Below, piece by piece: positions 21,613 to 60,770 of a stretch of 64,000 nt of DNA. The stretch comes from an uncultured Gammaproteobacteria bacterium (GTDB taxonomy: Bacteria > Patescibacteriota > Microgenomatia > Daviesbacterales > UBA10151). Under the pieces are notes generated by a model. That model was given only the letters and a program-made list of their open reading frames with translations, was not told the DNA's origin and made no database searches. The stretch covers positions 1,897-65,896 of the forward strand of contig CAYQAW010000002.1 of NCBI GenBank assembly GCA_964415615.1, given 5' to 3'. The position numbers were made by a program, and so were the translations under genes. Position 1 is the first letter of the stretch; every line of letters begins with the position of its first letter.

Positions 21613-21646
21613 TCACACTAGGGGTGAAAGTATATTGACACCCCAG
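21613..21646. repeat. REP-like palindromic element (CTAGGGGTG-N11-ACACCCCAGG) flanking the IS200-like gene; an inverted copy lies at 22359-22396.
   Basis: The reverse complement of 22359-22396 (CTTTCACCCTAGGGGTGGATTTAGGTTTACACACCAGG) matches 21613-21646 in the blocks CTAGGGGTG and ACAC(CC)CAGG with the same 11-nt spacing. Confidence 0.5.
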
Positions 21647-21673
21647 GAATATTAGTTTAATCTCTATATTAAG

Positions 21674-22345
21674 ATGCCTCACAGGTTTGTGGTTTTAGCC
21701 AATGATGAAATCTATCATGTATTTAACCGCTCTATTGCTGGGACAAACATATTTGCCCAAAATCAGAAGGTAAATTTAAATAAGGCTATAGAAATAGTAA
21801 ATTACTATCGATTTCCTCAAAAAATTAGATTATCTAGATTTAAAAGCCTTCCTGAGCAATTGAAGAAGCAATATTTAGATGCTCTAGGAGGTGTTATGCC
21901 CTTGGTTGAGATTTATGCTTTTGCTTTTATGTCAAACCATTTTCATTTTCTACTCAAACAGATTCGAGACAAAGGAGTTGCTATATTCCTTGCAAATTTC
22001 CAAAATAGCTTTGCTAAGGTATTTAATCTAAAAAATGATCGGAGTGGTGCTTTATTCCAAAATGCTTTTAAAGCCAAAAGAATTGTAACTGAGGAACAAT
22101 TTATCCATGTCTCGCGCTACATTCATTTAAACCCAGTCACTGCATATATCATTGAATTTGATAAGCTAGCAAGTTTTGAGTGGACTTCATATTCTGTATA
22201 TGCTGCAGATAAACAAATTCCTTTTATCAGTTCCATTTTCTTGCTAAAAATGTTTGGGACAAAGGAAAAGTATATTAAATTTGTTGCTGATCAGGTAGAT
22301 TATCAGAGAAAGTTGGCTTATATTAAAGATTTAATAATGGAATAA
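21674..22345 (+). mobile_element. IS200/IS605-family Y1 (HUH) transposase homolog of the RAYT type, flanked by REP-like hairpins.
   Basis: HUH motif in the context SNHFHFLLKQ. The catalytic Tyr region is near the C-terminus. Paralogous to ORF 58811..59458. Confidence 0.7.
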
Positions 22346-22358
22346 TCATTGATCCTGG

Positions 22359-22396
22359 TGTGTAAACCTAAATCCACCCCTAGGGTGAAAGAATGA
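22359..22396. repeat. REP-like palindrome CACCCCTAGGGTG plus the inverted partner of 21613-21646.
   Basis: See feature 21613-21646. Confidence 0.5.
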
Positions 22397-22590
22397 TTAC
22401 TGGTGGAGATATTAAAAAACTAACTAAAAAATTTGCTACAAAGATAGATTTAGCAAGGTTAGAAATGAACCCCTCCCCGCTGCAAGCTGACGGGGTATTC
22501 TGGTTCAAAAATAAAAATGAATTTGGAGTTTGAAAGAGTAAGGGAAGAGATGGTAACTAAAGAACTCCTCGGTGTGTTAAAATATCTTTC

Positions 22591-27045: not shown

Positions 27046-28281
27046 ATGAAAAAAAAGTTATTTTTTGTAGTGTTGATAGGATTTATTTTAGGTTCTATTT
27101 TTGTTTTACCATCTGGAGTAAAAGCTGATCCTGATTACAGTAGGTGTAATCAGTATGCTAATGGAGCTCATAATCCATCGCTTCCTAGTAACCAAAATTG
27201 TAATTGGAATTGGCGATATAACAATAGTAATCCTGCTGACGGATGCTATGGTGGTGAATGGTTAGGAGATTGTTCCTCCAGTGCTGCTCCAACAGCTGCT
27301 CCAACAGCTGCTCCAACAGCTGCTCCAACAGCTGTTCCAAGTTGTTCTGTGAGCTGGAATGTCGTCCCTGCAACAGTTGCTGCCAATACTGATTTTACCA
27401 TCAGTTTTACTCAAAGAACCAGTAATGTGGGATGGGATTATGGTAGTTTGTATTTGGATGGCACATATATAGATCATACTAAGGGGAAAATATGCGGGGT
27501 TACTCCCGGGGATACACTTGGCTGTCCTGACGGTGATGTTCAATTTGGAGCCTGGGGAGGCCTTAATTCAGGGGCAGCTGGTACTCATACTTTAACCTGG
27601 AAAGTGCCTAACCGTAATATTCCTGGAGTAACATTTAACAGCTCCCCTGCTACTACGTGTACTCCATCTGCTACTTTTGTTGTTCCAAGTTGTTCTGTTA
27701 CCTGGAATGTCCCTGCAACAGTTGCTGCCAATACTGATTTTACCATCAGTTTTACTCAAAGAACCAGTAATGTGGGATGGGATTATGGTAGTTTGTATTT
27801 GGATGGCACATATATAGATCATACTAAGGGGAAAATATGCGGGGTTACTCCCGGGGATACACTTGGCTGTCCTGACGGTGATGTTCAATTTGGAGCCTGG
27901 GGAGGCCTTAATTCAGGGGCAGCTGGTACTCATACTTTAACCTGGAAAGTGCCTAACCGTGGAGGAACTTGGGGAAGTACGTCTGCTACTACGTGTACTC
28001 CATCTGCTACTTTTGTTGTTCCAACAGCAACTCCAACAGCTGCTCCAACAGCTGCTCCAACAGCTGCTCCAACAGCAACTCCTGTTGCTTCCTGTAGTGT
28101 CAGTGGTGATATTGATGGCAATGGACGTATTGAACAGGCAGACTTTGATAAGTGGAAAAGCGCTTTTATTAATGGGAATTCTATTATAAATGTCCCTCCT
28201 GCTCTTAATAATTGCGCAGATGTGGCAGTAGATCTGGTGCTTTTTAACGCTTGGAGGAGCCAATCTGTAAGACTAAGATAA
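27046..28281 (+). CDS. Secreted repeat protein: signal peptide, (AAPT)n linkers, two near-identical tandem domains of about 115 aa, and a C-terminal dockerin-like calcium-loop module.
   Basis: Signal context VLPSGVKA. Linker APTAAPTAAPTAAPTA. Repeat A (27340-27684) and repeat B (27689-28022) are nearly identical at the nucleotide level. C-terminal motif GDIDGNGRIEQADFDKW fits the dockerin/EF-hand-like D-x-D-x-N-G-x-I-x-x-x-D loop. Confidence 0.6.
   Translation: MKKKLFFVVLIGFILGSIFVLPSGVKADPDYSRCNQYANGAHNPSLPSNQNCNWNWRYNNSNPADGCYGGEWLGDCSSSAAPTAAPTAAPTAAPTAVPSCSVSWNVVPATVAANTDFTISFTQRTSNVGWDYGSLYLDGTYIDHTKGKICGVTPGDTLGCPDGDVQFGAWGGLNSGAAGTHTLTWKVPNRNIPGVTFNSSPATTCTPSATFVVPSCSVTWNVPATVAANTDFTISFTQRTSNVGWDYGSLYLDGTYIDHTKGKICGVTPGDTLGCPDGDVQFGAWGGLNSGAAGTHTLTWKVPNRGGTWGSTSATTCTPSATFVVPTATPTAAPTAAPTAAPTATPVASCSVSGDIDGNGRIEQADFDKWKSAFINGNSIINVPPALNNCADVAVDLVLFNAWRSQSVRLR
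27340..28022 (+). repeat. Two tandem copies of a roughly 345-bp coding repeat, more than 95% identical.
   Basis: The stretches 27370-27600 and 27720-27950 read identically. Confidence 0.8.
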
Positions 28282-29795
28282 TGAATAACATAAAAGAGAG
28301 ATTAATTGATGTTAGGGATTTGCTGCAGGGGCATATCTTAGCCCTGATTATAATTTTAGTGATTGTGATTGGTATACCTATCACCTTTTATCTGGCCAAA
28401 CAACAACAGGATTTGCGGTCAAAAGCAACTGATGCTGGCCGTTTGGTATTTATACCACCTACCCCAACAGGATCTGTGAATATAAACAGCGCCTTTGATC
28501 TGGAGTTTGGCATTAATTTAAATCCGGCGGCGCGGATCACCGGAGCTGATGTAACTATTAGTTATACTAATAACCTGCGGCTGGATACTTTTTTGAAAGA
28601 TACGACTGTTTTACCGGAAGAGATCCTGAATAATAGCAATCCTGCTGTAAATCCTATAACTTTACATTATGTTGCTGTTAGTAAGAGTGGTGATTTGGCT
28701 TCCCGAACTTATGTTCCGTTAGGAAAGCTTACTTTTACAGCCATCAGCGCCGGGTCAGCAACAATTACTGTTATTACCAATCAGATTGTTGCTAAAGATC
28801 AACCAGGTACCCTGGCAATTGGAAATGCAACTACTACTTATACTGTTGCTGCCCGCGTTAATGGTGCCTGGTCTGTTTGGAGCGGAGGTACTTGTACTGT
28901 AACTTGTGATGGAGGTACTTTAACCGGAGAAACCAGGACATGTTATGCGCCTGCTGGTGGCGGAACAGAATGTACCAGGCTTGATAATACTCAGACCAAT
29001 TCTGAGAACTGGACTGATACCAGGTCGGGAGTGACAGCATGCAATACTCAAGCCTGTCCTGTTAATGGTGCCTGGTCTGCTTGGAGCGCTTGTTCAGCAA
29101 CAGCTTGTGGTACTTCTGGAACACAAACTAGAACATGTGATAATCCTTCACCATCAAATGGTGGGAGTGCCTGTACTGGGTCAGCTACCCAAGCTTGTGC
29201 TGCCTCTGCCTGTGCTGTTAATGGTGCCTGGTCTGCTTGGAGCGCTTGTTCAGCAACAGCTTGTGGTACTTCTGGAACACAAACTAGAACATGTGATAAT
29301 CCTTCACCATCAAATGGTGGGAGTGCCTGTACTGGGTCAGCTACCCAAGCTTGTGCTGCCTCTGCCTGTGCTGTTAATGGTGCCTGGTCTGCTTGGAGCG
29401 GAGGTACTTGTACTGTAACTTGTGGTGGAGGTACTCTAACCGGAGAAACCAGGACATGTTCTGCGCCTACTGGTGGCGGAACAGAATGTACCATGCTTGA
29501 TAATAGGACGCTGACTACTCCTACCAACCGGACTGAAACCAGGTCGGCAGTGACAGCATGCAATACTCAAGCCTGTCCCTGTATTAATGGGGATACTATA
29601 GGTGGTAACTCATGTGTGAGCATTGATGACTATAATACCTGGTATAGTGAATTCACAGGAGCAGTTACTACAAAAACAGCTGATTTTTATTCAGTATGTA
29701 ATAGTAGTAACCAAAAAGGAGATGGGGTGATTGATATTAATGATTATAATATTTGGCGCAGGGAATTTGATGCCAACAGTCACCGATGTACGTAA
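28281..29795 (+). CDS. Membrane-anchored surface protein: signal-anchor, cohesin-like domain, five thrombospondin type-1-like (TSP1) repeats, and a C-terminal dockerin-like module.
   Basis: Probable start is the ATG in TAATG overlapping the upstream stop. TM helix ILALIIILVIVIGIPITFYLA. Cohesin-like pattern ITGADVTISYTNNLRLDT...GKLTFTAISAGSATITV. TSP1 repeats of the form WS-WS...CS-TCG-G-Q-R-R-C...GG--C-G...C. C-terminal dockerin-like context DGVIDINDYNIWRREF. Confidence 0.65.
   Translation: MNNIKERLIDVRDLLQGHILALIIILVIVIGIPITFYLAKQQQDLRSKATDAGRLVFIPPTPTGSVNINSAFDLEFGINLNPAARITGADVTISYTNNLRLDTFLKDTTVLPEEILNNSNPAVNPITLHYVAVSKSGDLASRTYVPLGKLTFTAISAGSATITVITNQIVAKDQPGTLAIGNATTTYTVAARVNGAWSVWSGGTCTVTCDGGTLTGETRTCYAPAGGGTECTRLDNTQTNSENWTDTRSGVTACNTQACPVNGAWSAWSACSATACGTSGTQTRTCDNPSPSNGGSACTGSATQACAASACAVNGAWSAWSACSATACGTSGTQTRTCDNPSPSNGGSACTGSATQACAASACAVNGAWSAWSGGTCTVTCGGGTLTGETRTCSAPTGGGTECTMLDNRTLTTPTNRTETRSAVTACNTQACPCINGDTIGGNSCVSIDDYNTWYSEFTGAVTTKTADFYSVCNSSNQKGDGVIDINDYNIWRREFDANSHRCT
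28857..29580 (+). repeat. Five tandem TSP1-like coding repeats; the central two (about 174 bp each, roughly 29044-29391) are nucleotide-identical.
   Basis: Seen in sequence. The antisense ORFs over this span are repeat artefacts. Confidence 0.8.
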
Positions 29796-42235: not shown

Positions 42236-42798
42236 CGCCTCTCTCATTAATACAGGTTAATGCAGGGTTTGGCATAGGAGGCATAAGGAGAGAAACTGCA
42301 GGAGGTAATAATGGGTCCGGAAATCCTTGGGAAGAGAGTCCTGGAACAGATTGGGGAAAAACAGTCAAAGGACGTGTTTATGGAGGCTCCGGAAGACCAA
42401 CTGCGGATTATAGGAAAACGGGCACTCCACCATATTTTCCAATAACATGTGAGGAAATGGGTTGGGTGGAAAATGGTAATACTGATGCTGGAAGATTCAG
42501 AGTCTATCTGCAGTTTCATGGTATTGATCTTTCAGAGGCTAGGTTTTTGAAAAGCGGAGAGCATTATCTACGGCCTGCTGGATCTGACAGCGCTGTCTAT
42601 GCCAGGTTGAGAGGTGAGATTCTAGTAATTGCCACATTTGGAGATATCATAGAATGTCAACTGAGAGTTTTAGGACTTCAATCCTATGACAGGTCTTTAG
42701 GGAATTTCCATTTTGGTCAACTATTAAATTATGATCCCAGAAGAATGGGGATTTCGGTAAAGGGTAATTTAGTAGCTGTAGGGTACCCCCGGCCTTAA
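42202..42798 (+). CDS. Hypothetical Gly-rich protein (198 aa).
   Basis: Overlaps the end of the previous ORF. GC-richer than the surroundings. Confidence 0.35.
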   Translation: MGKGVSMPERLAPLSLIQVNAGFGIGGIRRETAGGNNGSGNPWEESPGTDWGKTVKGRVYGGSGRPTADYRKTGTPPYFPITCEEMGWVENGNTDAGRFRVYLQFHGIDLSEARFLKSGEHYLRPAGSDSAVYARLRGEILVIATFGDIIECQLRVLGLQSYDRSLGNFHFGQLLNYDPRRMGISVKGNLVAVGYPRP

Positions 42799-43377
42799 TT
42801 TTCTGGGCCAATTACGCCAAGCTTCCCTGTCTCTGTATAAAGGAAATTCTTCTTTTTCTACACAATGTAGTTTATTTGGATCAGTAATTAAATCTACAAA
42901 TACTTTTCCATCCAAATGATCAATTTCATGCTGAAAAATCCTTGCCACATAGCCAGAGTATTTTCTAAACTCCCGTTTACACCCCAAGGGTGTAAACTTA
43001 AATGATTGGATTTTGATAGAAGTTGATCTGGAGACTATTCCACAAACTTTGCCTGTGGAATAACATCCTTCATACCATTCCCCTTTTTCTTTAGACTTCC
43101 AAACTATTTTAGGGTTTATAAATATTTTTAAGTTTCCCACTTTTCCCTTACCATCTGCTGCTATATCTACTAAAATAATTCTTTTTAAAATTCCTATTTG
43201 TGGTGCAGCAAGCCCAACCATAATAGGTTTATTCTTCTCTTGCTGTTCTCCAAAAGCCACATTTAGCATTGCTTCTATAATCTTTTTAGTGTCTTTTGAA
43301 TTAATTTCTCCTTGAGGAATTTCTTGGGAGATTTGTGTTAAGCGTGGATCATTTGGTTTTAGAAAGTTTTTCCTCAT
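42769..43377 (-). CDS. def: Peptide deformylase.
   Basis: A conserved context GLAAPQIG. An EGCxS-type motif in the context EGCYS. HEIDHLDG. Confidence 0.85.
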   Translation of the reverse strand: MRKNFLKPNDPRLTQISQEIPQGEINSKDTKKIIEAMLNVAFGEQQEKNKPIMVGLAAPQIGILKRIILVDIAADGKGKVGNLKIFINPKIVWKSKEKGEWYEGCYSTGKVCGIVSRSTSIKIQSFKFTPLGCKREFRKYSGYVARIFQHEIDHLDGKVFVDLITDPNKLHCVEKEEFPLYRDREAWRNWPRKLRPGVPYSY

Positions 43378-47111: not shown

Positions 47112-48461
47112 TTAATTTATAAATACTTTTTCGACTGCGCTGTTAAATTTCCTTCCCCTATCAAATTCATTTTGGAACAAATTAAAAGAGGTAGCTGCTG
47201 GAGAAAATAGTATCATATCTTCTGGTTGTGCTATTTGTCTTACATCTGTTAGAAGTTTTTCTAAGTTATTGTAAGTTCCTGCGATTTTGTCTGATAGCTG
47301 ATAGCTGATAGCTGATAGCTTTTTTTTTATTTCTTCTGTAGAATCTCCTTCTAGGAAAAAAACTTTTTTAACTGATTTGCTTATTTTCTTTGCATACTCT
47401 GTATAATCCATTCCTTTATTCATCCCCCCACAAATAAGAATAATATTTAGCTTCCCACTTCCGATGTGGGAACGTAAAGCTTTTATGGCTTGAAGTCCTG
47501 ATTCAGGAGAGGTAGCAGCAGTATCATTGTAGATTTTTACCCCATTCCACTCCTTGATAAGTTCCATTCTGAAAGGTATCCCTTTAAATTCAGAAAGAGA
47601 TTTGAGTAATAGGTCTGAATTAATATCAAAGATTTTTCCTAGATTATAGACTGCAGAAATATTTTCTAAATTATGTTCTCCCAAAAGATTAGGATGAAAA
47701 TCTGTTGGTAAATCATTTTTGGAATAGAAAATTATTTGAGCCTTGAAATCTTTTAGAAAATTAGATTGAGTAGTAATTGGGTCGTCTTTTTTTAAGAACA
47801 AAAAGTCTTCTTCTTTTTGATACTTCCCAATTACCTTTTTTGCTTGAATATATTCATCTATTGATTTGTAGTAATTGAGATGGTCTGGGGTAATATTTGT
47901 TATTACTGCCCAGTGGGGAGAAACTTTATGAGCATCAAAAGCTTCCAGTTGAAAAGAAGAAATTTCTAAAACCACTAAAGTATCATTATTAACAAAGGGA
48001 ATAGTATCTAAAACACTTTTGCCAATATTGCCAGCAAAGACTACCCTTCGACTTCGCTCAGGGCCTTCGGCTTTCAAAACTTCATAAATTAAAGAAGAGG
48101 TTGTTGATTTTCCTTTGGTTCCAGTTACTCCAATAATTTGAGATGGTAAAACAGATTGTAAGAATATACCCATATCTGTTTCAACTTTTTTGTTATTTTT
48201 CAGAGCATATTCAATATAAGAATTTCCTGGTTTTACTGCTGGGTTTTTAATAATTAAATCAGCCCAATTAATATCTTCATTTTTATGTTCTCCTAATGTA
48301 TAGGAAATATTTGGGAAATCTCTGAGTTGATCTAAAGAGGGTTGTAATGCTTCTTTGGTTTTTAAATCAGTAACTTTAACCTGGTCTCCTTTTTGGGCAA
48401 AGAATTTAGCAGAGCCCACCCCTCCTTCATTCAAGCCTAAACCAAAGATTAAAACGTTCAT
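47112..48461 (-). CDS. murD: UDP-N-acetylmuramoylalanine--D-glutamate ligase.
   Basis: MurD-type Rossmann N-terminus. ATP-binding context GVTGTKGKSTTSSLI. Contains an in-frame (CTGATAG)4 repeat encoding LSAISYQLS. Confidence 0.85.
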   Translation of the reverse strand: MNVLIFGLGLNEGGVGSAKFFAQKGDQVKVTDLKTKEALQPSLDQLRDFPNISYTLGEHKNEDINWADLIIKNPAVKPGNSYIEYALKNNKKVETDMGIFLQSVLPSQIIGVTGTKGKSTTSSLIYEVLKAEGPERSRRVVFAGNIGKSVLDTIPFVNNDTLVVLEISSFQLEAFDAHKVSPHWAVITNITPDHLNYYKSIDEYIQAKKVIGKYQKEEDFLFLKKDDPITTQSNFLKDFKAQIIFYSKNDLPTDFHPNLLGEHNLENISAVYNLGKIFDINSDLLLKSLSEFKGIPFRMELIKEWNGVKIYNDTAATSPESGLQAIKALRSHIGSGKLNIILICGGMNKGMDYTEYAKKISKSVKKVFFLEGDSTEEIKKKLSAISYQLSDKIAGTYNNLEKLLTDVRQIAQPEDMILFSPAATSFNLFQNEFDRGRKFNSAVEKVFIN

Positions 48462-49288: not shown

Positions 49289-50560
49289 TTTTTTAGCTAA
49301 TATATCTGTATCTCCAGCGCTCATAAAGAATACAGTATCTCCAGATTTTATATCGGGTTTTAATTTATCTAAAGTTTCTGAAGCAGAACCAATGTATGAA
49401 ACATTAGGTTTGTTGATTGTTTCAACTAGCTGTTTACTGGTAACTAGCCCTGTGTCTATTTCTCTTGAAGGGTAGATATCCATAATAAAAGTTTTATCTG
49501 CTGATACATTTTTTAAAACATCTACAAAATTATCAAATAAAGCCTTTGTTCGGGAGAACATGTGAGGCTGAAAAATTAATAATATTCTATTTTCTGGGAA
49601 TTTTTGTCTGGCAGCTTCTATTGTGACTTTAATTTCTGTTGGATGATGACCAAAGTCAGAATAGACTTGAGCGTTATTATAATTTCCAATATATTCAAAC
49701 CTCCTGCTTGCTCCTGTAAAATTTCCTAAACTTTGTTTTATTACATCTCCCTCAATTCCTAAAATTAAACCTACTTGCATTGCAGCTTTAGCATTTAATC
49801 TATTAAACTCCCCTGGAATTTTTAGTTCTATACTTAAGTCATTTTTTGAATAGTCTAGGTATGTAGCGCCAGAGTGTTTCATAGTATTTTTGGTAACTTC
49901 AGCAATACCTGGGTCAGTTAAATTAACAACAGCTGTTTGTTTAGTTTGCAGTAAAAATTTATAAAAGCTATTTTTAACTGCTTCGTAATCTTTAAAATAT
50001 TCTGGATGATCCATCTCTATATTGGTTACAACAGCAATATTAGGTTTAAGGCTTAAAAAATTATCATTAAATTCATCTGCTTCTATCACAAAATATTTAC
50101 TTTTTCCTATTCTAAAATTAGCTTTCCATCTGGGAATATTTGCTCCCAGTAAAGCAGTGGGGTCAGCTCCTGCATCTTCTAATAATTGGGCAATCATAGC
50201 TGTTGTAGTACTTTTTCCATGAGTGCCTGCTGTAGCAATAACAAATTTTTCTTTTACTAAATACTTTCCTAAAAACTGTTGCCAGGTTAAAATAGGAGCA
50301 CCTCTTTTTCTAGCTTCTAAGAGTTCTGGATTATTTGGATCAAGAGAGAAAATAGCAGGGGTCACAGCCAAGACATCCACGTTCCCACTTGTCAAGTGGG
50401 AAGCTGAATGTCCTTTCAAAAGTTGATTGGGTTTGAATTGGGTTGTAAATTCATTGTGGGGATTTAGGTCGCAGCCTGAAACTTCAAATCCTTGGGCTTG
50501 AGCAATGGCAGCAGCACCAGATGCTCCAGACCCCCCAATTCCCAAAAAATGTACTCTCAT
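49274..50560 (-). CDS. murC: UDP-N-acetylmuramate--L-alanine ligase.
   Basis: N-terminal context HFLGIGGSGASGAA. ATP-binding context GTHGKSTTTAMIAQLL. Confidence 0.85.
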   Translation of the reverse strand: MRVHFLGIGGSGASGAAAIAQAQGFEVSGCDLNPHNEFTTQFKPNQLLKGHSASHLTSGNVDVLAVTPAIFSLDPNNPELLEARKRGAPILTWQQFLGKYLVKEKFVIATAGTHGKSTTTAMIAQLLEDAGADPTALLGANIPRWKANFRIGKSKYFVIEADEFNDNFLSLKPNIAVVTNIEMDHPEYFKDYEAVKNSFYKFLLQTKQTAVVNLTDPGIAEVTKNTMKHSGATYLDYSKNDLSIELKIPGEFNRLNAKAAMQVGLILGIEGDVIKQSLGNFTGASRRFEYIGNYNNAQVYSDFGHHPTEIKVTIEAARQKFPENRILLIFQPHMFSRTKALFDNFVDVLKNVSADKTFIMDIYPSREIDTGLVTSKQLVETINKPNVSYIGSASETLDKLKPDIKSGDTVFFMSAGDTDILAKKLIRS

Positions 50561-52519: not shown

Positions 52520-53149
52520 TCATTTCTTAACAGGCATTACCAGCATTAAATATTCTAAAATGGCCCTCATATTTACATTTTGTTTTGCCCATTGCTCTGC
52601 CTGCAGAAGCTTACTAAGAAAATCCGCATTAGCTGGTAATTTTTTATGAAAAAAACTAGTTAAGGAATATAAAAAATCTTCTCTATCTTTTAATTTTTCT
52701 ACATATTCAAATCTTTGTTCAATTGTGGCCTCTAATAACTTTTTTATGTCTTCTTCATGACTTTTCACTTTTAACTTTTCACTTTTAACTTTAATAATCT
52801 GGCATCTTGATAAAATAGTTGGTAGAAGTCTGGTGTCTGAATTGCTGCACATAATAAAAACAGCTTCTCTTGGTAGTTCCTCTAGGGTTTTTAGAAGGGC
52901 ATTTTGAGCTTCCGGGGTTAAATTCCCTGCTTCCTCTATAATTACTATCCTGCCTTTTGCAGAATAGGGTTTTAAGGAAAAATGGTCTATTATTTTCCTG
53001 GCTTCTGCAATTCCTAGTTTACTGTCTTGTTCGAAGTATAAAACATCAGGATGGTTTACATTCCCACTTCCGATGTGGGAAGCTAATAACTTTTTTGTCT
53101 CCTCTACCCTCTTGTTAATATTTGTAGAAATATAGAGCCTTGCAATCAC
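52520..53149 (-). CDS. Short DNA polymerase III delta-prime-like (HolB-type) clamp-loader subunit.
   Basis: A conserved context GRIVIIEEAGNLTPEAQNALLKTLEE. Sensor-1 context TILSRCQII. The N-terminal P-loop region is short or absent. Contains an in-frame (AAAGTTAAAAGTGAA)-type repeat encoding KLKVKSEKLKVKS. Confidence 0.55.
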   Translation of the reverse strand: MIARLYISTNINKRVEETKKLLASHIGSGNVNHPDVLYFEQDSKLGIAEARKIIDHFSLKPYSAKGRIVIIEEAGNLTPEAQNALLKTLEELPREAVFIMCSNSDTRLLPTILSRCQIIKVKSEKLKVKSHEEDIKKLLEATIEQRFEYVEKLKDREDFLYSLTSFFHKKLPANADFLSKLLQAEQWAKQNVNMRAILEYLMLVMPVKK

Positions 53150-57795: not shown

Positions 57796-58704
57796 ATGAT
57801 AATAATAGGTTTTGTTTTTGGAATGGTTTTAGGGAGTTTTGCGAAAGCGCTAGCTGATAGAAGTTTAAGTAAAAAGTCTTTTTGGGGAAGGTCGTATTGT
57901 CTGGATTGTAAACACAAGCTGGCATGGTGCGACCTTTTTCCTATTTTCTCCTACATAATCCTTCAAGGTAAATGCAGGTATTGCAGAAAAAAAATTCCTC
58001 TGGAATACCCAATTGCTGAAATTATTCTGGGAATATTGGTGGGATTTCTCTTTTGGCAAAGCTTCAAAAATTTTCAATTTACAATTTTCAATTTTCATTC
58101 AATTTTCAATTTACAATTTTCAATTTTCATTTTTGAATTAGTATATAAAACTTTCTTTATATTAATCTTGGCTGTTTTATTTATAACTGATTTAAAAAAG
58201 ATGTTTATTCCAGACAGGATTATAATTCCTTCTATAATTATTGGAGTCATTGGGATTACAGCTGTTACCATATATAAGATAGGTCATCTTTATTATTATC
58301 TTTCTCAAAGTGCTGTAGGCAGATTATTACTCCCTCCCCATAGTGAATATTTTCAAAGGCATGCTTTGATTACTGCTCAGCCATTTTTGCTATCTATTTT
58401 AATGGGACTAGCAATTGGAGGTTTTTTCTTAAGTTTAATAATTATTACCAGAGGTAAAGGTATGGGAGGTGGAGATGTTAAGTTAGGAGCCTTTATAGGG
58501 CTGATGTTGGGCTTCCCTAATGCTTTAGCTGCTTTGGTGCTGTCATTTTTATCAGGAGCTGTATTTTCAGTAGGTCTGATACTCCTGGGTAAAAAGCATT
58601 TTGGTCAAACAATCCCCTTTGGTCCATTTTTGGTATTAGGAAGTTTAATTGTGCTTTATTGGGGCAATCAGATTATGGACTGGTATTTAAAACTTGGGTC
58701 TTGA
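57796..58704 (+). CDS. pilD: Prepilin peptidase PilD (A24 family).
   Basis: N-terminal zinc-binding CLDC...CRYC. Two catalytic Asp-containing loops. About 8 TM helices. Contains an in-frame CAATTTTCAATTT-type tandem repeat (58075-58135). Confidence 0.85.
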   Translation: MIIIGFVFGMVLGSFAKALADRSLSKKSFWGRSYCLDCKHKLAWCDLFPIFSYIILQGKCRYCRKKIPLEYPIAEIILGILVGFLFWQSFKNFQFTIFNFHSIFNLQFSIFIFELVYKTFFILILAVLFITDLKKMFIPDRIIIPSIIIGVIGITAVTIYKIGHLYYYLSQSAVGRLLLPPHSEYFQRHALITAQPFLLSILMGLAIGGFFLSLIIITRGKGMGGGDVKLGAFIGLMLGFPNALAALVLSFLSGAVFSVGLILLGKKHFGQTIPFGPFLVLGSLIVLYWGNQIMDWYLKLGS

Positions 58705-58782
58705 TCAATCGTCTCAATATGATACGATTAAGGTATATGAGTGAGACGAATTTCTTAGTAATATTTTTTTGAGGTAACCTCC

Positions 58783-58804
58783 GATTACACCCTTGGGGTG
58801 TAAA
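58783..58804. repeat. REP-like hairpin ACACCC-TTGG-GGTGT (left flank of the IS200-like gene).
   Basis: Perfect 6-bp stem with a 4-nt loop, seen directly. Confidence 0.6.
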
Positions 58805-58810
58805 GATGAG

Positions 58811-59458
58811 TTAACTATATTCCTCTACCAGTTGGTGTTTTATAATTTCCAGTTCTCTGCCATAATCTGCCCGATCAGCAACGAATTTCTGATAATCTTT
58901 TGGTAATTTGAACTGATTTAGAATAATTTCTTTAGCACAGATTTTTTGAGTACTTAGCCCAATATATTCCAGATAAGATGACCAGCGGTAATCTTCTAGG
59001 TCTTTTACTAAACCTGAAACTAAGGGATTTAGATGGATATATCTGCTAAGATGTAATAACTGCTCATTACTTTCCACCAATACTGATTTGAACTCTCCTT
59101 GCAGAAGAGGCCCAACTCTACCATGCTTAATGTTGAAATACTTAGTATAACTATTGCTTAATTTACTGATAAATTCAGTTATGCCACCATCAATTAATTG
59201 TTTAATCAGGAAATGGAAATGGTTTGGCATTAAACAAAAGCAGATAATCTCGACTATCTGCTTGCTTGTGTCTAATAGATTATTAGTTGGCGCAAACAGG
59301 GAAAATCTGGGTTTTGGCCCAAGTATTTTGTAATAAAGCATGGTTTTTAAAAATCTTTGATAGTGATATGAGTTTTTAAAGATATTCATTTTGTCCACAC
59401 CCCTGTTGAAAATATGGTAATACTCCCCATTAACTAATGGATGAATTCTTGAAGGCAT
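58811..59458 (-). mobile_element. Second IS200/IS605-like Y1 (RAYT-type) transposase gene, flanked by REP-like hairpins.
   Basis: HUH motif in the context PNHFHFLIKQ. Paralog of 21674..22345. The 22-mer CGATTACACCCTTGGGGTGTAA sits at 58783-58804 and again at 59497-59518, followed by three tandem GTAAGTATGGGGT copies. Confidence 0.7.
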
Positions 59459-59496: not shown

Positions 59497-59548
59497 ACGA
59501 TTACACCCTTGGGGTGTAAGTATGGGGTGTAAGTATGGGGTGTAAGTA
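59497..59548. repeat. REP-like hairpin ACACCC-TTGG-GGTGT plus three tandem GTAAGTATGGGGT half-copies (right flank).
   Basis: Seen directly. Confidence 0.6.
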
Positions 59549-59563
59549 CAACTTAGTTAAATC

Positions 59564-59757
59564 CCCTTTGGTCCATTTTTGGTACTAGGAAGTTTAATTG
59601 TGCTTTATTTTTGAACCAGAATACCCCGTCAGTAGGCTTTGGGGATGGAAGGTTTAAAAAGAATTCACCCGAAGGGATACTCCGCAGTTTACTGCGGAGT
59701 AGTTCATTGGGGCAATCAGATTATGGACTGGTATTTAAAACTTGGGTCTTGATCAAT
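59564..59757 (+). repeat. Duplicated 3' end of pilD (copy 2 of 58612-58709), interrupted by a 97-bp insertion (59611-59707) that carries the CTCCGCAG-TTTA-CTGCGGAG hairpin.
   Basis: 59564-59610 and 59708-59757 are nearly identical to 58612-58658 and 58659-58709. The ORF-track ORF 59611..59829 over this region is spurious. Confidence 0.75.
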
Positions 59758-60175
59758 TTTTGTCTAAATATTTCAAAATTTCAGCTCCAAATTGACAAAG
59801 ATCTTTTAAATCTTCCTTGTAATCTTTGAAAAGAAGCTTGAAATCAAAATCATCATAACCATGAACTACCCTGTTTCTAAAGTCTGCTGCCTGACCCATT
59901 TTTAATGATAATTCTTTATCGATGATTCCTTTCTCTCCCAAAAAAATAAAAGCATCTTTGGCTGTTTCTTTCCGGGGTGCGTTTGATGAAGCAATAATAT
60001 GGGTAGCAATATCAATAGAGGTTTCTACAGCTTGCTGGAGGCGGAAGACTATCAAGTCATGAATATCAACGTTTTCTATAAACTCACCAGCGGTAAAATC
60101 CATATTTTCTATCTTATGGATTTGTTCACTTAAAAAATCTAACTTTTTTGCCACTAAATCTTTACTAATTAACAT
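59753..60175 (-). CDS. HEPN-domain toxin, HepT (DUF86)-like.
   Basis: R-x4-H-x-Y motif in the context RNRVVHGY. Overlaps the upstream nucleotidyltransferase gene. Confidence 0.7.
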   Translation of the reverse strand: MLISKDLVAKKLDFLSEQIHKIENMDFTAGEFIENVDIHDLIVFRLQQAVETSIDIATHIIASSNAPRKETAKDAFIFLGEKGIIDKELSLKMGQAADFRNRVVHGYDDFDFKLLFKDYKEDLKDLCQFGAEILKYLDKN

Positions 60176-60626
60176 AAGAGAATTTATCTTTTAAGTAAGA
60201 ATAATAGATTTTTCTGAGATGAGCAGTATCATAATAATTACCTAAAGTGAATGCCTCAAAAGCAATCTTTTCTTTTTCTGATCTTTGATAAATACATTGT
60301 CCTGTACTGACGATTTGAAACAGAAACAAAGGAGAAGAATTTTTATCAACTACGGATAAATCTAGATCCTTAGGAAAATTAATATCTGATATCAAAGTAT
60401 GAATATATTCATAGTCAATTTTGCTAGCATTATCTACAATTATGGCTAAATCAAAATCACTATCGGTTTTTGCTCTGCCACTAATGACTGATCCTAAGAC
60501 ATAAGCCAGTTTTATCTTAGGTTCTTTGGATAATGAGGTGTCTATTTGTGAGATCATTGTTGTGTCTAACATAAGATAAGTATAACATTTGCTTAGGTAG
60601 TTGATCAATCGATAATAACAAACCAT
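60165..60626 (-). CDS. Minimal nucleotidyltransferase (MntA-like) antitoxin.
   Basis: Pattern G-S-x9-13-D-x-D in the context GSVISGRAKTDSDFDLAI. Confidence 0.65.
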   Translation of the reverse strand: MVCYYRLINYLSKCYTYLMLDTTMISQIDTSLSKEPKIKLAYVLGSVISGRAKTDSDFDLAIIVDNASKIDYEYIHTLISDINFPKDLDLSVVDKNSSPLFLFQIVSTGQCIYQRSEKEKIAFEAFTLGNYYDTAHLRKIYYSYLKDKFSYVN

Positions 60627-60713
60627 CCCCTTTGGCCCATAGCTAGTACTAGGTAGTTTAATAATGCTTTTCTGGGGAAATCAAATTATTGATTGGTATT
60701 TAAGACTTGGTCA
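60627..60713 (+). repeat. Third, more diverged copy (about 75% identity) of the pilD 3' end.
   Basis: CCCCTTTGGCCCAT...TTGATTGGTATTTAAGACTTGGTCAATGAG aligns with 58612-58709. Confidence 0.6.
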
Positions 60714-60770
60714 ATGAGTAGTTGACAAATAATAGAGAAAAAGTTGTATTATGGAATATAGATACTGCCT

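Follow-up and report, generated by a model that had tools for sequence, protein, structure and literature searches.

What are the two small genes for Y1-type HUH transposase homologs in this 64-kb stretch of contig CAYQAW010000002.1 (hereafter the window, that is, the whole stretch of DNA that was analysed): insertion sequences that still move, or fixed chromosomal genes, each with its own palindromic partner? The sequence-only reading had described them as IS200-like genes domesticated as REP-RAYT-like units, each between short hairpins that its own product recognizes. We assign a probability of about 0.6 to the reading that each locus is a unit of the REPtron/TIRtron type, in which a fixed class 2 Y1 HUH gene is bracketed by hairpins that are recognized by the encoded enzyme and copied or maintained in trans. 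The host is Candidatus Daviesbacteria, a member of the Microgenomates in the candidate phyla radiation (CPR). The genes and their flanking elements are as follows.

21613-21648, plus strand: locus 1 upstream element, with the hairpin CACAC-TAG-GGGTG (21614-21626), a 12-nt spacer and a third arm, CACCCC (21639-21644), that overlaps TTGACA (21635-21640)
21674-22345, plus strand: RAYT-like Y1 HUH gene 1, 223 aa, context SNHFHFLLKQ, motifs NHFH, LFQ, YIHLNP and WTSY
22353-22388, plus strand: locus 1 downstream element, an inverted copy of 21613-21648, with the hairpin CACCC-CTA-GGGTG (22375-22387)
58782-58803, minus strand: locus 2 hairpin 22-mer on the 3' side of gene 2, reading TTACACCC-CAA-GGGTGTAA-TCG on the gene strand (z -2.8 as single-stranded DNA, ssDNA)
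58811-59458, minus strand: RAYT-like Y1 HUH gene 2, 215 aa, context PNHFHFLIKQ, motifs NHFH, LLQ, YIHLNP and WSSY
59498-59548, minus strand: locus 2 hairpin 22-mer on the 5' side of gene 2 (59498-59519), with a 13-nt arm repeated three times (59510-59548)

Both open reading frames (ORFs) are intact and are as the sequence-only reading described them (223 aa with SNHFHFLLKQ and 215 aa with PNHFHFLIKQ); both proteins retain the HUH histidines and the catalytic tyrosine, and they share 36% identity over their full length. Y1_Tnp is the sole Pfam domain that matches them, weakly (21 and 26 bits), and the single NCBIfam match for both is the RAYT model NF047646 (41.0 and 51.3 bits). The same model, and no other NCBIfam family, is matched by 28 of 28 aligned family members (best E 5.5e-15); the IS200/IS605 models of NCBIfam are matched by none of the 28 at E <= 0.1. 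In alignments of 28 and 47 sequences H80, H82, Y140, N144 and P145 are invariant, and the invariant or near-invariant positions make up the motifs Y14-H15-x-x-N18-R19, N79-H80-x-H82, F/L-Q120, Y140-I-H-L-N144-P145 and a W-S-S161-Y tail. Single-sequence searches of the PDB told us almost nothing (E 0.09 with gene 2, and with gene 1 no relevant match), so a profile and a structure model were needed: the profile search ranks E. coli TnpA_REP (4ER8) first (E 0.0028), and the AlphaFold model (pLDDT 87.2) has 4er8_A as its top PDB match in Foldseek (E 2.9e-7, TM score 0.70 on the target), with the TnpA structures of IS608 and ISDra2 behind it (E ~1e-4). The family has thousands of members across Levy-, Davies- and Curtissbacteria; the nearest named relative of gene 1, a protein of Candidatus Daviesbacteria RIFCSPLOWO2_02_FULL_36_7, is 96% identical to it.

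In Table 1 of Quentin et al. 2018 (PMC6006769), the Y---NP motif defines class 2 (TnpA_REP-like), whereas IS200 TnpA (subclass 1.1) has about 150 aa, the HUH motif DH[VI]H and the Y motif Y[IV]ENQ (Y---Q). The two proteins are RAYT-like members of class 2 and are not IS200 TnpA; on this point the sequence-only reading is borne out by the sole NCBIfam match (NF047646), the class 2 motifs and 4ER8 as the nearest structure. Within class 2, their motifs suggest placement in TnpA_Y1 subclass 2.1, for which the same table gives a second signature of NH[YF]H, FQ, Y[IV]HLNP and an SS tail; this subclass is the same as group 1 of Bertels et al. 2017 (PMC5581495), coincides to a large extent with the TIRYTs of Di Nocera et al. 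2013 (PMC3733652) and is said to have no association with REPs and no REP families (PMC6006769). The nearest described family would then be one reported without REPs, not the classical E. coli-type RAYT that the sequence-only reading had in mind. Like the members of TIRtrons (PMC3733652, PMC6006769, PMC5581495), the window proteins carry NH[YF]H, FQ, Y[IV]HLNP and the SS tail, are longer than IS200 TnpA, occur in low copy number and have divergent paralogues; unlike them, they have no detectable helix-turn-helix (HTH) or DnaA-C-like C-terminal domain (Bac_DnaA_C, HTH_23, HTH_28). The full proteins give Y1_Tnp alone, the C-terminal 53-56 residues have no Pfam match at E <= 10, and this region forms three or four short helices in the structure model. 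A further difference is the host, which belongs to a CPR/Patescibacteria lineage outside the sampling of those surveys; Microgenomates, Parcubacteria and Candidatus are words that do not occur in the 2018 survey text (PMC6006769), and a literature search on RAYT together with the candidate phyla radiation returned nothing relevant.

Both genes are chromosomally fixed and lie in conserved synteny. For gene 1, the order LytR, TPR (minus strand), the gene (plus strand), yebC, ruvC and DUF5656 is the same in the window and in the loci of three orthologues (L050, L054 and L057; 96%, 78% and 78% identity). The orthologues of gene 2 (L012, L013/L014, L021 and L046; 87-89% identity) all lie between pilD and pilin genes, are convergent with pilD as in the window, and have the same hairpin on both sides; L013 also contains a third paralogue, which adjoins trmD and has three-part flanks of its own. 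Near-identical gene copies were not found, the 64-kb window holding only the two divergent genes, and tnpB is absent from the vicinity of either. According to Bertels et al. 2017 (PMC5581495), RAYTs resemble housekeeping genes in their behaviour and differ from insertion sequences; the combination of no tnpB, no near-identical copies and conserved synteny is the RAYT pattern described there. The sequence-only reading is supported in that these are divergent genes of low copy number in conserved synteny.

The flanks of the two loci differ in architecture. At locus 1, the sequence-only reading had reported mutually inverted elements, and we find two inverted arms of 36 nt that are 78% complementary. 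Each arm consists of a small outer hairpin, a 12-nt spacer and a gene-proximal third arm (CACCCC or its complement); the right hairpin is perfect, the left one has one mismatch, and both fold weakly as ssDNA (z about -1.3). These elements are kept in L050, L054 and L057, in which the other intergenic or spacer DNA has diverged. The arms form terminal inverted repeats (TIRs) of about 36 bp, and they contain GGGGTGAA, a 7/8 match to the published motif GGGGWSAS of the long TIRs that TIRYT genes have in place of REPs; this partial likeness to TIRtrons is confined to locus 1. The TTGACA at the inner arm is invariant among the orthologues. A scan of the upstream element as a sigma-70 promoter gave no support and no full promoter match; conservation of TTGACA/TTTACA may merely reflect its place in the palindrome.

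Locus 2 has two directly oriented copies of the exact 22-mer CGATTACACCCTTGGGGTGTAA, at 58782 and 59498, each with a stem of 8 bp and a loop of 3 nt, and one 13-nt hairpin arm, TGGGGTGTAAGTA, is repeated in tandem 3.0 times at 59510-59548, as the sequence-only reading had seen. Single-arm duplications beside flank hairpins are also present in L012 and in the metagenomic locus L100; they could have been left by abortive cleavage and joining, or else by slippage during replication. The upstream hairpin is followed by a T-rich tract and was flagged as terminator-like. The matches are well above chance; the degenerate palindrome has 5 matches in the window (0.11 expected) and the 22-mer with <=3 mismatches has 3 (0.00 expected). 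The earlier claim that the hairpin stems differ between the loci is correct for the loop, the stem extension and the architecture; the core stem, CACCC/GGGTG, is common to both. True stem-loops, in place of the plain TIRs of TIRtrons, flank locus 2 and most of the relatives.

Flanking hairpins are a property of the family. We compared the two flanks of 68 metagenomic relatives (36-59% identity) for which both flanks were available: the best sequence common to both flanks has a median score of 20.75, as compared with 8.5 for mismatched flank pairs, and the score is >= 14 in 51 of the 68 (the 95th percentile of the null is 12). Nearly all of the shared sequences are palindromes, and they vary by locus (e.g., TACACCTCCGAGGTGTA, TTCCATCCCGGGATGGAA, CCTGCAGGGCCAGGCCCTGCAGG and CACTTGGCGGTTTAACCGCCAAGTG); thus, the hairpin co-varies with the protein, as expected if each transposase has a cognate hairpin, which the sequence-only reading had proposed for the two loci. 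In nine relatives (L102, L117, L119, L121, L122, L129, L130, L134 and L137) the cognate hairpin also occurs once or twice inside the tnpA ORF, about 115-455 nt from the start and most often about 165-240 nt from it. A hairpin or REP inside the tnpA ORF had been reported solely for TnpA_Y1 subclass 2.4 (PMC6006769), and the relatives described here resemble that subclass in this respect.

The sequence-only reading also stated that isolated copies of the hairpins elsewhere in the genome would mark their dispersal. For locus 2 such copies exist, both in the window and in other Daviesbacteria genomes; for locus 1 none was found in 183 kb of Daviesbacteria DNA. The copy in the window is the following.

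42975-42997, plus strand: isolated locus 2 hairpin, in frame in the peptide deformylase gene def (42769-43377, minus strand), encoding FTPLGCK

This copy matches the 22-mer at 20/22 nt, including an exact 19-mer, and has a 10-bp perfect stem (ssDNA z -4.8). A search for the exact 19-mer TTACACCCCAAGGGTGTAA in one genome per species identified 29 stretches, mostly from Daviesbacteria metagenome-assembled genomes (MAGs), with 2-5 exact copies per genome; a RAYT-like gene is present in 2 of the 29 (L021 and L046). Some of the stretches are in MAGs labelled Gammaproteobacteria; the genes on either side are clearly orthologous to those of Daviesbacteria. In isolated copies the palindrome is often longer (e.g., AACTTACGTTTACACCCCAAGGGTGTAAACGTAAGTT), and 19 of these copies (from 18 stretches and the def gene of the window) are in frame in ORFs of 178-601 aa, which include pheT, fmt, rsmI, prmC (at two different sites), murC, a MurT-like ligase and pyrB as well as genes for a GT2 glycosyltransferase, a methyltransferase and a large membrane protein. 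The 19-mer is also found in five orthologous membrane-protein genes; these were ascertained by the exact-match search and are not used as evidence of constraint.

On the labels of these MAGs, we note that Gammaproteobacteria-labelled 'binchicken' MAGs, among them L025, L037, L044, L048 and L054 (assembly GCA_964551605.1, CAZKCV01), contain Daviesbacteria genes in the TPR / RAYT / yebC / ruvC synteny and share the hairpin-bearing membrane-protein gene; the label looks wrong.

The reading frames of the locus 2 palindrome are used unequally. The frame that contains TAA is never used; the commonest encodes L-R-L-H-P-K-G-V, or ..P-W-G-V in the opposite orientation, and the third encodes F-T-P-Q/L-G-C-K. 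The CAA loop is on the sense strand in 15 of the 18 frame-1 intragenic copies, a bias that fits targeting of the lagging-strand template and is confounded by selection for Lys over Trp. In the 183 kb of Daviesbacteria DNA, which were not chosen by hairpin content, all eight isolated hairpins are in ORFs and in frame; at a coding density of about 90% this means that genes are not avoided, the opposite of what classical REPs do. The hairpins also have no GT[AG]G foot (GTAG or GTGG), their feet reading CGA-TTACACCC, TC-CACCCC and ATC-TCACAC. The hairpins are therefore not canonical REPs: they lack the GTAG/GTGG foot, have few copies per genome and lie mostly inside genes.

A pair of adjacent hairpins of the CACCCC-TG-GGGGTG type, similar to the locus 1 element, was seen at L057 6126-6163, where CACCCCTGGGGTG and, after a 12-nt spacer, CACCCCAGGGGTG are in frame in tgt; this is the sole doublet (REPIN-like) arrangement that we encountered.

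A second hairpin family, TTCCCAC-N(3-7)-GTGGGAA, shares the outer arms TTAGC/ACGTAA with the locus 2 family and is represented by three members in the window.

47446-47478, plus strand: second-family hairpin TTCCCAC-N7-GTGGGAA with outer arms TTAGC/ACGTAA, in frame in murD, encoding LRSHIGSGKL
50378-50406, plus strand: second-family variant TTCCCACTT-GTC-AAGTGGGAA, in frame in murC, encoding SASHLTSGNV
53055-53086, plus strand: second-family hairpin, in frame in a DNA polymerase III delta'-like gene (holB), encoding LASHIGSGNV

The encoded peptides follow the pattern L(R/A)SH(I/L)(G/T)SG(K/N)(L/V), and the family is also found in eight other fetched loci. Its cognate RAYT-like gene is absent from the window; a matching gene is present in L100, where the hairpin just upstream of the gene contains the 19-mer TCCCACTTGACAAGTGGGA that is identical to the murC hairpin of the window and the downstream flank has TCCCAC-N7-GTGGGA copies of the family. 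A strict regular expression that requires both outer arms gave 1 match (3.3 in shuffles) and was dropped.

Comparison of genes with and without a hairpin indicates how the intragenic copies are accommodated. In def, the turn between EGCxS and QHEIDH is hypervariable among 120 Daviesbacteria homologues: there are short forms (TIQG--DTLEA), forms with the locus 2 hairpin in both loop orientations (FTPLGCKREF and FTPQGCKREF), variants that preserve the stem (TPRRCKAK, TPQGWSLKF and TPRGCDI) and longer inserts (LKLHSRSVHSNPLLEWK..). In the syntenic comparison genome L138 (77-84% protein identity), a different palindrome, TCCAGGG-CGACA-CCCTGGA, occupies the very site of the locus 2 hairpin in the window's def gene. 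The def gene of L138, which is free of the locus 2 hairpin, had been a candidate for a clean 'empty site', and that interpretation is ruled out by the palindrome that it holds. The murD element of L138 is identical at 36/36 nt, with flanks that differ at 8/60 nt, and its murC has a hairpin at the same site with a different loop; in L033, a locus 2-type hairpin in murC takes the place of a segment that is equally long and unrelated in murC of the window. Between two prmC orthologues the situation is reciprocal, each having a hairpin at a site where its counterpart has a loop with another sequence. Across def, murC and prmC the net length change is -5 to +4 residues, so the elements act as loop replacements at hot spots. 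The orientation of the loop also flips at fixed sites (FTPLGC vs FTPQGC, LHPKGV vs LHPWGV).

The def beta-turn is such a hot spot in its own right, with at least four different palindromic or inserted sequences that place 9 to 26 residues between the anchors IKIQ and GY(V/T)ARIFQHE.

By homology with TnpA_REP and IS608 TnpA, each enzyme would bind its own hairpin on ssDNA, e.g., on the lagging-strand template; the catalytic tyrosine would then cut beside the hairpin and the strands would be rejoined. With the gene itself no longer moving, short palindromic elements (19-37 nt) might be copied or maintained in trans, and the two flank copies would be the recognition sites of the enzyme that may also insulate or regulate the gene. 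In compact genomes the elements would persist mostly inside genes; only stop-free frames survive there, so the elements would encode loops of 11-12 residues (LRLHPKGV.., LRLHPWGV.., FTPLGCK and LRSHIGSGKL) in housekeeping proteins. The REPtrons of E. coli (TnpA_REP or RayT, 4ER8, with REP/BIME) and of Pseudomonas (RAYT with REPINs) are the classical precedent: they share with the window the closest solved structure and the class 2 Y---NP motif, a single-copy gene between its own palindromes, a hairpin family per paralogue and, at locus 1, inverted flanks. The differences are that the window hairpins have no GT[AG]G foot tetranucleotide, number a few to tens of copies per genome instead of hundreds, are mostly intragenic instead of extragenic, and form no REPIN doublets except for the in-frame dimer in tgt of L057, and that the proteins score below the NCBIfam cut-off.

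Several observations weigh against this REPtron/TIRtron-type reading. The scores of 41.0 and 51.3 bits are below the equivalog cut-off of NF047646, 80 bits. We infer cleavage and movement from homology. Copy numbers are low, with about one isolated hairpin per 20-30 kb (8 in 183 kb), and in the same 183 kb no isolated locus 1 element with the same loop was found. In def, murC and prmC, the comparison of hairpin-bearing and hairpin-free alleles shows replacement of a loop of similar length instead of a clean insertion, and no target sequence or insertion footprint could be derived from these comparisons. Several intragenic hairpins are at the same position in orthologues of 70-84% identity, which implies that they are old and vertically inherited and that current mobility may be nil. 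Finally, a 74%-identity relative of gene 2 (L006) lies between pheT and the gene for a penicillin-binding protein, with three-part flanks; this different genomic context implies that a locus 2-type unit has relocated at least rarely, on a longer time scale.

The surroundings of locus 2 contain repeats of another kind. The last ~99 bp of pilD (57796-58704) are present three times: copy 1 within the gene (58611-58709), copy 2 (59560-59609 and 59703-59757; 98-100% identical) just past the RAYT-like cassette, and copy 3 (60624-60722; 75-82% identical) past a HepT/MNT toxin-antitoxin pair (59753-60626, minus strand). This looks like serial acquisition of cassettes at the 3' end of pilD. The duplications are absent from L012, L013, L021 and L046, which have the same RAYT cassette and hairpins, and the 99-bp repeat was rejected as the footprint of cassette insertion for that reason. 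Copy 2 is split by an insert of ~93 bp (59610-59702) that starts with TTTGAACCAGAATACCCCGTCAG and ends in a 10-bp hairpin, TACTCCGCAG-TTTA-CTGCGGAGTA; its first ~45 nt recur inverted just downstream of locus 1, at 22471-22515. Public assemblies of the same organism end at these repeats (the ends of L001 and L005), and because they break at these points the insert is probably a genome-wide repeat that resembles a MITE (a miniature transposable element with inverted repeats). Rfam has no match anywhere in the window, so neither the hairpins nor the MITE-like element is a known RNA family.

Of the other explanations, the one that survives best accepts that the genes are domesticated TIRYT/group 1 RAYTs and regards the flank hairpins merely as cis elements (operator, terminator or promoter context), the intragenic hairpins having spread or persisted independently of the enzyme through gene conversion, quasi-palindrome template switching or selection for a role at the DNA or RNA level. 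We consider it rather improbable, albeit a serious contender. The invariant TTGACA that overlaps the inner arm at locus 1 and the terminator-like hairpin with its T-rich tract upstream of gene 2 are what cis elements would provide, and a subclass reported without REP families (PMC6006769) is in keeping with it; yet the co-variation of hairpin and protein across the family, and the one-to-one match of the other hairpin family with another RAYT-like gene (L100), point to enzyme specificity. The same tension is found in the intragenic copies. They replace loops of similar length without the addition of 36 nt, the flips FTPLGC/FTPQGC and LHPKGV/LHPWGV are of the kind that template switching yields, and the murD hairpin is identical between genomes at 36/36 nt next to flanks that differ at 8/60 nt; however, identity over 19 to 36 nt between the flanks of a gene and unrelated genes needs a copying process that links them, and homologous enzymes cleave and join at such hairpins (the 4ER8 literature; PMC6006769).

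That the loci are autonomous insertion sequences of the IS200/IS605 type, with TnpA between subterminal end hairpins and the whole unit moved by single-strand 'peel and paste', is unlikely. The Y1 HUH fold is present and hairpins lie on both sides of each gene (at locus 2 direct on one strand, like IS200/IS605 ends; at locus 1 inverted), and the upstream hairpin at locus 2 may act as a terminator, as in IS200. The proteins themselves differ from IS200 TnpA in length (215-223 aa vs ~150 aa), in the HUH motif (NHFH vs DH[VI]H) and in the Y motif (Y---NP vs Y---Q); no member matches an IS200/IS605 model, and there is no tnpB nearby. The different context of the 74% relative is what a mobile element would give, but copy number is low, the two copies in the window are only 36% identical and synteny is strict across species. 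Many contigs with these genes are short; the breaks in the assemblies coincide with other repeats (the pilD 3' end and the MITE-like element). A common target preference, by which the hairpins would be pre-existing host sequences and the cassette would have inserted in or beside one of them, as some insertion sequences target REPs, without the enzyme being their source, is similarly improbable: gene 2 between direct hairpin repeats resembles an insertion with a duplicated target, and the cassette of the window is also between the 99-bp pilD 3'-end duplicates, but target duplication is not a feature of Y1 transposition (as established for IS200/IS605), the 99-bp repeat is missing from the four loci with the same gene and hairpins, and about three quarters of the distant members have flank palindromes, each with its own sequence.

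The intragenic elements bear comparison with the Rickettsia palindromic elements (RPEs) and the intragenic REPs of Di Nocera et al. 2013 (PMC3733652), which are likewise short palindromes in frame in housekeeping genes; they are found in either orientation, add residues to loops and are tolerated where these loops are at the protein surface. RPEs, in contrast, have no known dedicated transposase and are CGTC-tagged, whereas each family here has a cognate Y1 gene; the present elements are also shorter (19-37 nt) and usually replace a loop instead of lengthening it. Intragenic in-frame REPs, RPEs and REPs inside tnpA were thus already known (PMC6006769, PMC3733652). The new aspects are the CPR host, dispersed hairpin families tied to a subclass that was reported without any (the TIRYTs, in subclass 2.1, reportedly lack REP-like sequences) and the small number of almost exclusively intragenic copies.

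RAYT/REP systems are an unsolved case of transposase domestication, and for the largest RAYT group (group 1, subclass 2.1, TIRYT) no DNA partner has been known so far. In the tiny, gene-dense genome of a CPR bacterium, members of the subclass 2.1 type have cognate flank hairpins and dispersed matches, nearly all in frame in housekeeping genes, so that concrete pairs of enzyme and hairpin are now open to biochemical testing. Outside Rickettsia, too, the loops of essential proteins can be shaped by families of palindromic repeats, and odd loops of 11-12 residues in CPR proteins may derive from repeats, a warning for annotation. More speculatively, Daviesbacteria, and perhaps many CPR, might possess several fixed Y1 HUH enzymes, each paired with a 'repetitive intragenic palindrome' of its own, the palindromes being kept DNA-identical inside essential genes (def, murC, murD, holB, pheT, prmC and others) across species as functional ssDNA sites or as a means of rewriting protein loops rather than as junk. 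We hold this wider proposal tentatively; if true, the large TnpA_Y1 subclass 2.1, 'REP-less' until now, would gain its first REP-type partner.

Elsewhere in the window, a long ORF region at 27258-29578 has large internal repeats, that is, 12-nt repeats (GCTGCTCCAACA), two exact 252-nt copies and two 156-nt copies; it probably encodes a repetitive surface protein that is unrelated to the hairpins.

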